NCBI GenBank assembly: GCA_963827655.1 | Contig: CAWHCF010000023.1 | Location: 416,001 to 480,000 of the forward strand | Reading direction: 5' to 3' | DNA: 64,000 nt | Origin: an uncultured Acidobacteriota bacterium | Lineage (GTDB): Bacteria > Acidobacteriota > UBA6911 | In this document: one piece after another, positions 10,411 to 13,654 of the stretch | How the letters are laid out: every line of letters begins with the position of its first letter | Numbering within the stretch: position 1 is the stretch's first letter | The notes under the pieces: generated by a model | Database searches by the model: none | Told to the model about the DNA's origin: nothing | Seen by the model: only the letters and a program-made list of their open reading frames with translations | Program-made: the position numbers and the translations under genes

Positions 10411-11046
10411 GTGCAAATAGACAACCAAACCAGCGCCCTGCTCGTCATCGACATCCAGAAGGACTTCTGCGACCCCGATTTTGCCTGCGGCAAATCAGGG
10501 CGAGACCTGAGTCCGATTCATGACATGGTTGCGAAGCGGCTTCTTCCGTTTTTGCAGCAGACCCGCGCGGCCAGCATCCTGACCGTCTATTTGGCTGCCC
10601 AATACCCGATGGGAAAGTTCTCGGTGGATGGCCTGGCTGAACTCTGCCTCGAGGGAAGTCCCGGGGCCGAGTTGTATCTGATCCAGCCGGACGCAAATTC
10701 CACCCGCGAGCGAATCTTCTTCAAGTCCGAGCTGAACGCCTTCAGCAATCCGGAGCTTCACTCTTGCCTTGCGGGCGAAAGAATCGAGCAGATTCTGATC
10801 GCCGGGGTTGCGACGGACAAGTGCGTCCGCGCGACTGTGCTGGCAGCGAGATCGATGGGATATCGGGTGATCGTGCTCTCCGACCTGGTAGCCGCAGGCA
10901 CCCACCGCCGGCGCGAGCACGACGAGACTCTGGGCTACCTGGCGGCTCAGCCTGGAATCGGCGTGCTTTCTTCCGCCGAGATTCGGTTTGAGTTGGACGG
11001 TCGCAGCTTCCCGGGGAAGCGTCCACGAAGCGCGATCTTGGGTTGA
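10411..11046 (+). CDS. Cysteine hydrolase (isochorismatase family)
   Basis: ALLVIDIQKDF, K..LNAF, GVATDKCV catalytic D-K-C triad. Confidence 0.85.
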   Translation: MQIDNQTSALLVIDIQKDFCDPDFACGKSGRDLSPIHDMVAKRLLPFLQQTRAASILTVYLAAQYPMGKFSVDGLAELCLEGSPGAELYLIQPDANSTRERIFFKSELNAFSNPELHSCLAGERIEQILIAGVATDKCVRATVLAARSMGYRVIVLSDLVAAGTHRRREHDETLGYLAAQPGIGVLSSAEIRFELDGRSFPGKRPRSAILG

Positions 11047-11094
11047 TCGCCTCCGAGCTTCGGACCGCTTCCCCGGATCACATAACCTTTCGGC

Positions 11095-11634
11095 CTACTT
11101 GAGGGTCTGGCAGGAGGCAAGCGCGCCCGTCACATCGATCGCGCTCTGTCCCTGCTCGACACTCTTTATCTTGCCTTCCTTGTCAATGACAAAAGTCGTA
11201 CGGATGGCAATCCCCGCCTCTTCGTTCAGCACTCCATAAGCGCGGGACACCTCGCGCTTGAAGTCGCTTAGGAGAGGGAATTCGACACCGTTCTTGTTGG
11301 CGAATTCCTTCTGAGAGGCGAAAGAATCAACGCTGATGCCCAGGACCTGGGTGTTGGACTCCCGGAACTTTGCCATGTTGTCCCGGTAGTTCTGTACTTC
11401 GCGGGTTCAGCCGCCGGTGAAGGCCAGGGAGTAGAAGGCAAGAACGACGTTCTGCTTCCCGCGAAAATCAGAAAGCTTGACGTCCTTTCGATCTTGATCC
11501 TTCAGGGTGAAGTCTGGCGCCATATCCCCGACTTTCACCGAGGTCTTGGGTGTCGTGGCTTGCTGGGCGTAGGCTGAAAGGATACCGGCAACCAGGGCAA
11601 GCATAAGCCCTGGAATGAAAAGACGTCGAGTCAT
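11095..11634 (-). CDS. Peroxiredoxin (AhpC/TSA family), probable selenoprotein with UGA=Sec at 11407-11409; N-terminal export signal
   Basis: ORFs 11407-11634 and 11095-11376 are in one frame: [10 protein letters not shown]...[21 protein letters not shown]...VLGISVDS...PLLSD...AIRTTFVID; TGA occupies the peroxidatic Cys position. Confidence 0.85.
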
Positions 11635-11728
11635 CTTCAGGCTCCTTTCGGGAAATATGCTTAAAATTTATGCGCGGGTGTCTTTGGAGTCAACCGAAAA
11701 CGCCGCTTCACCAGGAAAGCCGCCAGAA

Positions 11729-12125
11729 CCTGCGATTCAAACGGTGGTCGCTGGCCGAGAACGAAGAAGGAAAGAAGTGCCTGGCAAAGCGCCAGATCCG
11801 AAGGGCCGGCAGTGCGTAGGCCCGGCCGATAGAGACTGTTGCAGAACAACGGTCTCAGATGGTCGTCGCCACAGGATGCTCGAAAGGTGTCTAGGCCACT
11901 CGGCAGTGGGCGCGGGCGTCAGTCTCGTTAGGCCGGGAAAAGAGTTCAGGTCGAGAACGAGCGCCGAAGGTGCGACACAGTCGGAGTGCCGGTCCTTCGG
12001 ATGTCGGATTCGGGGCCGTGCCTCACGCCTCACGGCAGCGGCTATTCCCTGCCCGGCCTTCGGCCCTGTTAACGGGACGCGAGAAGAACCTTCGAGAATC
12101 GTACCGCTACTGTCTGAATCGCAGG
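11729..12125 (+). ncRNA. Candidate ~400-nt structured non-coding element (large ncRNA or structured MITE), family unknown
   Basis: 19-bp terminal pairing 11729-11747/12107-12125, long-range pairing 11798-11812/12049-12063 and several internal hairpins; overlapping ORFs are not protein-like. Confidence 0.55.
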
Positions 12126-12193
12126 CCAGGACATATAAGTTTGGAAGTATGGTGCGCTTGTGATAAACCTAATTCCTAATTCCAGGTGAATCA

Positions 12194-12640
12194 ATGGCGG
12201 CGATTTCCGCTGACCTCAAGAAGCTTCTGGCGCGCACCAAGCTGGCTGTACTTCCGGAGGATTACTACTTGATCCATCTTCCGCTGGACACCCGGCCGAT
12301 TGCGGCGGAATGGTTTCGTCCCGCCACGACCCGTTTTGCAATCTTCATCCGCGAGCCGAGGGGAATCTCCCTGGTGGTTCCGCGCAGAAAATGGCTGCGG
12401 ATGAGAAATATCTTCAGCGAGTACCGGCTTCGCGGACCGATGAGAGTGATCACGCTCGAAATGCCGGATTCCCTGGAGGTGTCCGGCTACATCTCGGCGC
12501 TCATCAATGTTCTTTCGCAGGCACGAATCAGCCTCATTCCCGTATCTTCGATGAATCGCGATCACATCCTGGTAAGGAAGCCGGACCTTCCCCGCAGCGT
12601 TCGGCTCTTGCGCAACTTCCTTCAGAGCTGCGGGGCGTAG
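12194..12640 (+). CDS. ACT-domain-containing protein
   Basis: 148 aa; RVITLEMPDSLEVSGYISALINVLSQARISLIPVSSMNRDHILV resembles ACT_7/CASTOR-type ACT domains. Confidence 0.75.
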   Translation: MAAISADLKKLLARTKLAVLPEDYYLIHLPLDTRPIAAEWFRPATTRFAIFIREPRGISLVVPRRKWLRMRNIFSEYRLRGPMRVITLEMPDSLEVSGYISALINVLSQARISLIPVSSMNRDHILVRKPDLPRSVRLLRNFLQSCGA

Positions 12641-12769
12641 GAAATTACTAATTACAATGGCAACGCAATTGTGAGAGACCCGTTCCTTTTCTTTCGAGCG
12701 GCCGCCTTCAGGTATCCGCATGTTGTCCGTATTGTTAGAAGCTCACTGGCTGATTGAGTCGAGGCCATC

Positions 12770-13255
12770 ATGACATTCCTTATCCTGTCGTTTCTCATCA
12801 CAATGATAGGGCTCGGCCAGGATTCGAGCGAGCCGGCGCGCCAGATACGGCTTATGCTCGAAGTTCAGCAGCAGGACTGGAACCGCGGCGATATCGAATC
12901 CTTCATGCGCGGCTACGAACGGGGCGATTCCCTTATTTTTACCAGTGGAGGGAAGATCTTCCGGGGTTGGGACGAAGCGCTTCGGCGGTACAAATCCACG
13001 TACCGGGATCGTGAGGCCATGGGGCAACTCGAGTTCTCACAGCTGGAGATAACGATTCTGAGCGACACGGCCGCCATCGTCCTCGGAAAATGGAGTCTTC
13101 AACGCCGAAACGACAGCCCGGGAGGTGTCTTTACGCTGGCGCTGCGAAAGGGCTCCGATGGATGGAAGATCATCCACGACCACACGTCATCCTACGAAAC
13201 GACCAGAACTGAGAGATGTACTTTGAAAGAGAAGGATGCGAACTGCGAATCGTGA
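12770..13255 (+). CDS. NTF2-like/DUF4440 (YybH-like) protein
   Basis: QQQDWNRGDIESFMRGY, MGQLEFS, GWKIIHDHTS. Confidence 0.85.
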   Translation: MTFLILSFLITMIGLGQDSSEPARQIRLMLEVQQQDWNRGDIESFMRGYERGDSLIFTSGGKIFRGWDEALRRYKSTYRDREAMGQLEFSQLEITILSDTAAIVLGKWSLQRRNDSPGGVFTLALRKGSDGWKIIHDHTSSYETTRTERCTLKEKDANCES

Positions 13256-13654
13256 AGAAGCGATACTCGATGTTTTTATCCTGAACGATTTTGACACACG
13301 GATATCCTGTGAGATCTTCGAATCACAAAAGCGAACCGACCCGTCGTCCGGAAGCGTGGCCAGCGACGGCATGGTGCTGCCGTAGGCATCGCTTCTCCCC
13401 GCGCGGGTATTGTTCCAAATTTCCGATAAGCTGGTTCAGCTCTTCCAGCGAAGAGACGGTACGGCCGATCGCGTCCCGCGACTTCTAGCCGACAATGTCG
13501 ATTGACTGGATGGCGATGAAAAGGCTAGAGTAAGGATTCGCTAAGCCCATCCCTCGAGTTGTGAGCTGAGTCCGTCCCTTGCTTGCGCTGTACCGCGTGA
13601 GCGATCTGCGGACTATGTTGTCTTCCGTAAAGCGCCTTTGCGGCGACACCTTTC

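Follow-up and report, generated by a model that had tools for sequence, protein, structure and literature searches.

The 397-nt element analyzed here occupies positions 11729 to 12125 of the window, a 64,000-nt stretch of DNA from an uncultured Acidobacteriota bacterium, where it lies between a peroxiredoxin gene (prx) and a gene encoding an ACT-domain protein (ACT). Its sequence matches that given in a preliminary description, which read it as an undescribed large structured RNA or, as a second possibility, a nonautonomous structured element of the miniature inverted-repeat transposable element (MITE) type. The element is composed of three nested layers of multicopy hairpin repeats and is not a unique RNA gene; its core consists of two inverted copies, now decayed, of a ~90-nt unit with three hairpins. 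Very probably it is selfish repeat DNA in these three layers, with a core that is the doublet of a Y1 transposase cassette without its gene, inserted between the prx and ACT promoters. On balance, and with less confidence, we also favor the broader reading that Acido-Lenti-1 (Rfam RF01687), a motif carried by this repeat family, is not an RNA gene but the end module of a REPtron-like IS200-class Y1 system widespread in Acidobacteria, the gene-less doublets of which would persist as orphans once the enzyme has disappeared, as in this genome, re-amplify inside unrelated MITEs, and serve as landing pads for a loop-targeting MITE and for group II introns.

The composite nature of the element is evident from its copies in the genome of origin (assembly of 8.18 Mb in 53 contigs, 90% complete; G000 hereafter). 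BLAST with the 397 nt returned 63 matches, an abundance that had been proposed beforehand as favoring a MITE, and a more sensitive BLAST search returned 98 pieces in 83 clustered places. Coverage by other copies is zero outside 11728 to 12129 and agrees with the ends described previously: it is absent up to 11727, begins at 11728 to 11730, and drops to one copy or none past 12125. Within these limits it falls into blocks of unequal depth, namely 11729 to 11775 (~5 copies), 11790 to 11828 (9 to 12), 11864 to 11915 (~9), 11926 to 12083 (11 to 50), and 12084 to 12125 (~12). Furthermore, position 11828 joins directly in other copies to sequence resuming at ~11926 to 11930. Blocks that differ in copy number, together with this direct junction, identify the window element as a composite. 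What was first taken for an undescribed large RNA is thus a mosaic of three multicopy repeat families, and the second of the two original readings, a nonautonomous structured element, is the one borne out, as a REPIN-like doublet core with a nested MITE fragment and outer arms.

The core spans ~11790 to 12083. A profile hidden Markov model (HMM) built from eight copies gave 152 matches on both strands of G000, corresponding to 114 nonoverlapping loci, of which 29 are full length. The window copy matches this profile in two pieces (Table 1) and is, by this sequence match, a homologue of the motif-carrying family. The core consensus is ~200 nt long and contains seven hairpins. Hairpin 1 (GGCCC-GAA-GGGCC) is followed by a linker ending in RTAG, then by hairpin 2 (GCCCGGCC-GTAA-GGCCGGG), a spacer, and hairpin 3 (GCGCC-GAA-GGTGC); hairpin 4 is central, and hairpins 5, 6, and 7 mirror hairpins 3, 2, and 1, with CTAY after hairpin 6. 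As one and the same ~90-nt stretch matches profile positions 8 to 96 on one strand and 102 to 199 on the other, the core is an inverted doublet. Single ~90-nt halves are found alone in relatives.

Conservation of this architecture was evaluated in an alignment of 25 core copies drawn from 9 genomes. Paired bases occupy 93.5% of the cells at the proposed pairs, 11 of the 47 pairs change on both sides, and the covariation score was reached by none of 500 shuffles; slid controls pair at 30 to 45%. Immediately 5' of hairpin 2, almost all copies have the trinucleotide TAG, preceded by G, A, or C. The window copy has GTAG, which would suit the GT[AG]G foot of repetitive extragenic palindromic (REP) sequences, but the preceding base varies among copies.

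The same family carries Acido-Lenti-1. Two intact sister copies in G000 (L090 and L089) match RF01687 at 51 and 46.1 bits, above the gathering score of 37. The model covers hairpin 6, the CUA-containing linker, and hairpin 7, and the mirror half on the opposite strand scores 38.5 (L090) and 26.7 bits (L089). At an E value of ≤0.001, RF01687 has 55 matches in G000 and is found in 33 of 41 related genomes; a BLAST search with the window copy underestimates the spread of the family, reaching 15 of the 41. The Rfam motif measures 46 nt, whereas the natural unit here is ~90 nt long, has three hairpins, and usually occurs as an inverted doublet, and the motif acts here like the terminal module of a DNA transposon. 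In Table 1 of Weinberg et al. (2010, PMC2864571), Acido-Lenti-1 is rated as probably RNA and not cis-regulatory. A literature search on Acido-Lenti-1 and on REPIN/RAYT systems in Acidobacteria returned, supplements aside, no published link between Acido-Lenti-1 and an IS200 transposase. In one related genome (G008), at least 14 Acido-Lenti-1 matches with an identical score of 60.5 bits lie on many contigs, paired with matches of 53.2 bits ~130 to 370 nt away on the other strand. This suggests that G008, which has a Y1 gene, holds a recently amplified population of near-identical doublets.

The connection to a transposase comes from the related genomes, which were searched for PF01797 with one locus per genome taken, giving 30 loci. 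Using nhmmer, the hairpin unit was detected on both sides of the Y1 gene in 4 of the 30, and two further such loci were found among five additional Y1 loci. The left flank aligns to core positions 9 to 96 and the right flank to 102 to 198, on the same strand and ~500 bp apart, with an open reading frame (ORF) of ~150 amino acids in between. Since the units bracket the Y1 gene in this outward geometry, the doublet corresponds to the cassette minus its gene. The four flanked proteins are 52 to 85% identical to one another, show HUH (DHVH/DHIH) and YIxxQ motifs as read from their sequences, and match Y1_Tnp at 95 to 100 bits and the IS200/IS605 family transposase model NF033573 at 80.6 and 77.8 bits. 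With one of them as the query, relatives were found in 20 of the 41 genomes at an E value of ≤1e-20. Among the 30 Y1 loci returned, RF01687 (E ≤ 0.01) lies on both sides of the gene in nine, counted as outward pointing and within ~150 nt of the gene, and on one side in five; nhmmer adds both-side units at three loci, so that at least 12 of the 30 are flanked on both sides. Moreover, units lie on either side of every full-length gene that is at least 50% identical to the query (seven genes). Most genomes have one to four matches to the Y1 gene (10 each in G025 and G035), which is present in 16 of the 22 genomes with at least 10 RF01687 matches versus 4 of the 19 with fewer. This threshold was chosen after the data had been seen, and the genomes are related to one another. 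Of the 41, the unpublished G034 enters only these tallies.

Among known systems, IS200/IS605 elements, in which the Y1 enzyme TnpA acts on subterminal hairpins of single-stranded DNA, share the enzyme family by both NCBIfam and Pfam. They also share hairpins at both ends and gene-less derivatives that outnumber the gene; palindromic gene-less derivatives of this kind bear the name PATE. The ends of classical IS200/IS605 elements are not mutual inverted repeats and the insertion sequence is itself multicopy, whereas here the ends are inverted copies of one unit. A comparable system is the class 3 TnpA-Y1 of Acidobacteria and Planctomycetes, described by Kamoun et al. (2018, PMC6006769) as having high-copy "atypical secondary structures": the Y1 gene is flanked by several hairpins, with ~600 copies in Solibacter usitatus, and is placed as an intermediate between insertion sequences and REPtrons. 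Common to both are a Y1 gene of Acidobacteria and, around it, hairpins that are present elsewhere in high copy number. Compared by the motifs described there (NHVH, W[TA], YV..EQ, and a CnGA foot), the present system differs in having DHVH/DHIH, WQ, YIxxQ, and RTAG.

The core resembles a REPIN, in that its relation to the flanked Y1 gene is analogous to that of a REPIN to a "REPtron," a REP-flanked gene for a REP-associated tyrosine transposase (RAYT), as described by Bertels and Rainey (2011, PMC3116915) and Di Nocera (2013, PMC3733652). Shared features are GC-rich palindromes with a tagged foot by the stem (here RTAG and, in complement, CTAY), an arrangement as head-to-head doublets around a structured spacer that is itself conserved, a large number of copies lying between genes, several lineages that can share one genome, and two inverted palindromic units able to fold as one hairpin. 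Inverted copies also bracket a low-copy Y1 gene, in the relatives and not in G000. Differences are that the enzyme here belongs to IS200/IS605 (NF033573, 80.6 bits) and not to REP_Tyr_transpos, that the unit is ~90 nt long with three hairpins instead of a single 20- to 40-nt palindrome, and that the base before TAG is variable. Layer 1 is an inverted doublet of ~90-nt units, each with one hairpin marked by an RTAG foot and with its outer two hairpins forming Acido-Lenti-1. Drawing on the known mechanisms of IS200/IS605 and REP/RAYT systems, we propose that the Y1 enzyme would bind these hairpins on single-stranded DNA, cut near the RTAG foot, and move or copy gene-less doublets in trans.

The second layer would have arisen when a truncated copy of a hairpin-loop-targeting MITE landed in the loop of core hairpin 2. 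The sequence that splits this hairpin in the window (insert C in Table 1) is flanked by GATA (11828 to 11831) and GTTA (11927 to 11930), which match at three of four positions, while other copies read GCCCGGCC-GTAA-GGCCGGG unbroken. In metagenome contigs of other copies, 11828 jumps to 11950 to 11958 with TAAGGCCGGGA... in between. The window insert has a 7-nt terminal inverted repeat (TIR) versus the 16-bp TIR of the family (GAGACTGTTGCAAAAC / GTTTTGCAACAGTCTC). Several family members, as judged by eye, lie in 4-nt loops of GC-rich hairpins with the 4-nt loop duplicated, and the ~250-bp family, with its TIRs and target-site duplication, is a MITE that appears to insert specifically into such loops; examples are found in G000 at C11:29060-29300 and C6:219440-219680. 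Searches identified neither an Rfam match nor an autonomous partner for it. Insertion sequences of the IS1397/ISKpn1 type target the loops of REP palindromes, and insert C resembles them in this respect. As a further candidate identity, an omega-RNA or TnpB guide scaffold was rejected: PF07282 has no matches in G000, and the family is a 250-bp TIR element.

The third layer consists of the outer arms, which close the whole into one long stem. A profile of six left-arm copies found 12 places in the genome at an E value of ≤0.01, as against 14 for the right arm (11729 to 11789 and 12067 to 12125; the right arm proper, in terms of the layers, is 12084 to 12125), and both arms stand together at only three or four places. 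In G007 the right tail follows core copies without any left arm. Among 112 loci (287 kb) from relatives, the left arm was not found, and neither arm flanks any Y1 gene. The arms may be the shell of an older MITE or, alternatively, a tail that a sublineage acquired.

The insertion of the element between the two genes can be deduced from relatives. The spacer is 559 bp long, with prx on the minus strand (start codon at 11634) and ACT on the plus strand (start at 12194). The divergent pair is kept in G014, G009, G017, and G006 with spacers of 162, 172, 186, and 248 bp, respectively, none of which contains the element. Subtraction of 397 from 559 leaves 162 bp, the spacer size of G014; together with the short spacers of the relatives, this identifies the element as an insertion between the divergent promoters of prx and ACT. 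Promoter-like words are retained outside it, AGTCAA near prx and TGTGATA near ACT. The relatives' spacers are too diverged for base-by-base alignment and gave neither the insertion point nor a duplication. A soil-metagenome DNA contig from a close relative carries the whole element at the same place, with 28 differences and 6 gaps over 912 nt, so the insertion is older than that divergence. The repeats CCAGAA and CCAGGA that had been noted at the ends are indeed present and match at five of six positions, but as a target-site duplication they are possible at most. Imperfect flanking repeats of 6 to 9 nt occur at three of the six elements for which outer ends were printed (window, C30, and C50), matching at 5/6, 7/8, and 7/9 positions with unequal lengths of 6, 8, and 9 nt; there are none at C22 or C53, and the left end of C46 is merely a guess. 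The positions of all parts of the element are listed in Table 1.

Table 1. Positions in the window of the parts of the 397-nt element and of features in its flanks
Feature	Position	Strand	Basis or remark
Promoter-like site of prx, TTGACT-17-TAAATT	11665-11693	-	Outside the element; AGTCAA word common to the relatives' syntenic spacers
Left flank CCAGAA	11723-11728		With CCAGGA (12126-12131), possible target-site duplication
Outer left arm (BL), conserved GCTGGCCGAGAACGAAGA stretch, local hairpin at 11781-11795	11729-11789	+	Fold; 11729-11747 pairs with 12107-12125
Core hairpin 1, degenerate (~11794-11806), and linker GGCAGTGCGTAG; GTAG foot (11816-11819) just 5' of hairpin 2	11794-11819	+	Core-profile nhmmer match 11791-11831 (E 3.3e-4); TAG nearly invariant in the 25-copy alignment
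Core hairpin 2, split: 5' arm GCCCGGCC (11820-11827), 3' arm GGCCGGG (11931-11937)	11820-11937	+	4-nt loop (GTAA/GTGA) in other copies
Insert C, internally deleted 95-nt copy of a ~250-bp MITE family	11832-11926	+	TIRs GAGACTG... (11832-11838) and ...CAGTCTC (11920-11926); nine other copies aligned
Core center: spacer and hairpins 3, 4, and 5	11938-12004	+	Core-profile nhmmer match 11926-12081 (E 1.1e-30); pair counts
Hairpin 3, GCGCC-GAA-GGTGC, conserved G.T wobble	11961-11973	+	Pair counts
Hairpin 4, central	11974-11991	+	Position of the transposase gene in relatives
Hairpin 5, degenerate	11992-12004	+	Pair counts
Acido-Lenti-1-type half: hairpin 6, CTAT foot, linker, and hairpin 7	12015-12066	+	L090 and L089 match RF01687 over exactly this module
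Hairpin 6, diverged, with 7-nt tandem duplication CCTCACG x2 (12021-12034)	12015-12043	+	Read from the sequence
CTAT foot	12042-12045	+	CTA nearly invariant 3' of hairpin 6 in the 25-copy alignment
Hairpin 7, CGGCC-TTC-GGCCC	12054-12066	+	Acido-Lenti-1-type module
Outer right arm/tail (BR), TGTTAACGGGACGCGAGAAGAACCTTCGAGAATCGTACCGCTACTGTCTGAATCGCAGG	12067-12125	+	14 genome places at E ≤ 0.01; 12107-12125 pairs with 11729-11747

Several observations weigh against the interpretation as a gene-less Y1 cassette. The 90%-complete assembly contains no cognate Y1 gene: tblastn with the four proteins gave a best E value of 0.53, and a protein search gave no matches. Mobility is for this reason deduced from the relatives. 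There, 16 of the 30 Y1 loci have no flanking motif at an E value of ≤0.01, and the Y1 proteins have no REP_Tyr_transpos match in NCBIfam and so do not fall in the RAYT/TnpA-REP class; as the enzyme is of the IS200 class, the term REPIN is an analogy. The window copy itself falls below the RF01687 score, with no match at an E value of ≤1 in positions 10500 to 13500, since its hairpin 6 has diverged with a 7-nt duplication and its hairpin 2 is split. The outer arms may be a separate MITE. The doublet itself was not seen to be cleaved, excised, or recently transposed, and the pairs of copies that are at least 95% identical move with another MITE shell. Finally, orientation relative to local GC skew is concordant at 66 of 114 loci (P = 0.11) and reaches 40 of 57 (P = 0.003) only after post hoc filters, a pattern that retains, at best, a faint trace of the strand polarity predicted for single-strand transposition.

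Pairwise identity among the full-length copies is 68% at the median, and the 5 of 406 pairs with at least 95% identity all belong to a ~300-bp subfamily, the doublets of which are enclosed in the shell of another MITE, recognizable by CTTAG/CTAAG/TTAG duplications in six of the seven copies with readable ends. The copies in this genome are old, save those riding inside this younger MITE. With no cognate transposase in the 90%-complete assembly, the window copy is probably an immobile relic. An autonomous partner of the ~300-bp MITE was sought and rejected, as its ends stand 2.4 kb apart at one place only, around a group II intron ORF and not a transposase. At this place (G000:C22:191274-193720, L121), a copy of the CTNAG-duplicating MITE with the doublet is broken by the intron ORF (RVT_1, 97 bits; GIIM, 77 bits). 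Acido-Lenti-1 has group II introns and IS5-like transposons as described neighbors, and the intron in L121 fits this description. Under a crude gene call covering 75% of the genome, 8 of the 114 loci are genic, and 104 intergenic loci lie between tandem (58), convergent (27), and divergent (19) genes.

That the whole 397 nt would be transcribed as one large functional structured noncoding RNA (ncRNA) is extremely improbable, even though its fold is striking. The minimum free energy (MFE) of the plus strand is -181.8 kcal/mol, compared with -159.9 ± 6.2 kcal/mol for 100 dinucleotide shuffles (z = -3.54), and none of the shuffles folds as well; the fold comparison proposed in the preliminary description thus came out in favor of structure. 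For the minus strand the MFE is -159.8 kcal/mol (z = -2.68), equaled by one shuffle in 100 and 22 kcal/mol less favorable than that of the plus strand, which fits, in this copy, the earlier remark that G-U pairs favor the plus strand. The MFE fold holds both the terminal stem and an inner stem of 15 to 16 bp (CCGAAGGGCCGGCAG/CTGCCCGGCCTTCGG), so the closed multihelix shape with 19-bp paired ends was correctly recognized, and the structure of the element is not due to chance. Coding signal is lacking as well, as had been reported: the two long ORFs crossing the element (182 amino acids on the plus strand and 98 on the minus strand) match no Pfam family. Retention of the whole element in the close relative's DNA contig would likewise suit an RNA gene. 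However, each block is a separate multicopy repeat found in other combinations elsewhere, both outer arms coincide at so few places, none of the four relatives has the element in its syntenic spacer, and two of the core hairpins have decayed while one is split by an insertion. Nor does any Rfam family match the window copy: there were no matches at an E value of ≤1 to the large structured ncRNA classes (OLE, GOLLD, HEARO, ROOL, RNase P, tmRNA, and others). The absence of a significant Rfam hit, as guessed in the preliminary description, holds for the window copy but not for the family, given the intact sister copies that exceed the RF01687 gathering score. The palindromes stacked in the element give rise to its strong fold as a by-product. 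Contigs from two RNA runs span prx and end at 11639 to 11641, and over the element they cover only 11954 to 11998, in sequence derived from other copies; these are low-depth metagenome contigs from which no conclusion on transcription is drawn.

A role of the hairpin units at the RNA level, as the small RNAs that the Rfam label "Acido-Lenti-1 sRNA" suggests or as REP-like terminators or mRNA stabilizers, with the window copy modulating prx and/or ACT and mobility being secondary, is likewise unlikely, though it has more to recommend it. The published rating of Acido-Lenti-1, the covariation of the hairpins, and a G.U-type wobble in hairpin 3 kept in 20 of 25 copies are all in line with it, as are a mild enrichment between convergent genes (27 of 104 intergenic loci versus a background of 17 to 20%) and the side roles of REPs in other bacteria mentioned by Di Nocera (2013, PMC3733652). 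Strand-specific wobble pairs were considered as an RNA signature and rejected: once the conserved hairpin 3 wobble is set aside, the local helices hold 11 G.T cells against 22 A.C cells, and with G.T not exceeding A.C there is no strand-specific RNA-type signature. Moreover, doublets show the motif on both strands at once, orientation relative to genes is unbiased (28 same, 30 opposite), the window copy separates two divergent promoters, precedes both genes, and does not overlap the predicted prx promoter, and the gene that consistently accompanies the motif encodes a DNA transposase. We also doubt, if less strongly, that the 397-nt unit is a single classical cut-and-paste MITE moved whole by a DDE transposase with the hairpin core as mere cargo. 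The terminal arms do pair over 19 bp (11729 to 11747 with 12107 to 12125), three of the six elements with printed ends have imperfect 6- to 9-nt direct repeats, and the ~300-bp shell demonstrably carries the core in this genome. Yet those repeats are all imperfect and differ in length, left and right arms (12 and 14 places) are mostly unpaired with one another, the tail in G007 and the relatives' loci lack the left arm, and no autonomous partner with CCTGCGATTCAGACAGTG-type ends was seen.

For the window, the interpretation as nested selfish repeats removes a false lead, in that a convincing 400-nt "closed multihelix RNA" is stacked palindromic repeat DNA. If the wider interpretation is correct, an abundant Rfam family of unknown function would represent the hairpin ends of a single-strand-DNA transposase cassette and its REPIN-like offspring, and the REP/RAYT way of life would extend to an IS200-class enzyme and to a phylum in which it has hardly been described. 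Motifs of this kind covary under a constraint on DNA hairpins, and their covariation is by itself no proof of RNA.

A single PF01797 gene is present in G000 and is of another kind. It encodes 223 amino acids, lies at C35:41712-42383 within G000:C35:41647-42862 (L041 1403-2618), and is flanked by perfect 25-nt inverted repeats beginning GGGGACAG that occur nowhere else in the assembly. This gene was rejected as a RAYT partner of the core, as it is bounded by these unique TIRs and not by the hairpin unit, and a word shared by the two (GAGTAG plus a GC-rich run) is too short to be meaningful. Against REP_Tyr_transpos, the gene product scores 64.7 bits and falls short of the cutoff of 80. The arrangement corresponds to the "TIRYT" described for Acidobacteria by Di Nocera (2013, PMC3733652). 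In a metatranscriptome contig from another organism (X16), core hairpins 3 and 4 are joined at a point equivalent to window position ~11991 to ...GGTAGCCTGTCCCC, which is the inner-end word of the C35 TIRYT-type repeat, a hint that the two Y1 systems can lie next to each other.

The gene adjoining the element is itself unusual. The prx gene (11095 to 11634, minus strand) is one reading frame with an in-frame TGA at 11407 to 11409, at the expected peroxidatic cysteine, and Pfam AhpC-TSA matches both halves around it. A hairpin starts ~20 nt after the TGA, with a fold not better than shuffles, and the genome has SelA (372.8 bits). The product is probably a selenocysteine peroxiredoxin with a signal peptide and the gene not a broken one. 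The SelA match is split at G000:C23:243876-244765 into adjacent segments (profile positions 1 to 30 and 32 to 297) in different open frames, which may be due to a frameshift or an assembly error.

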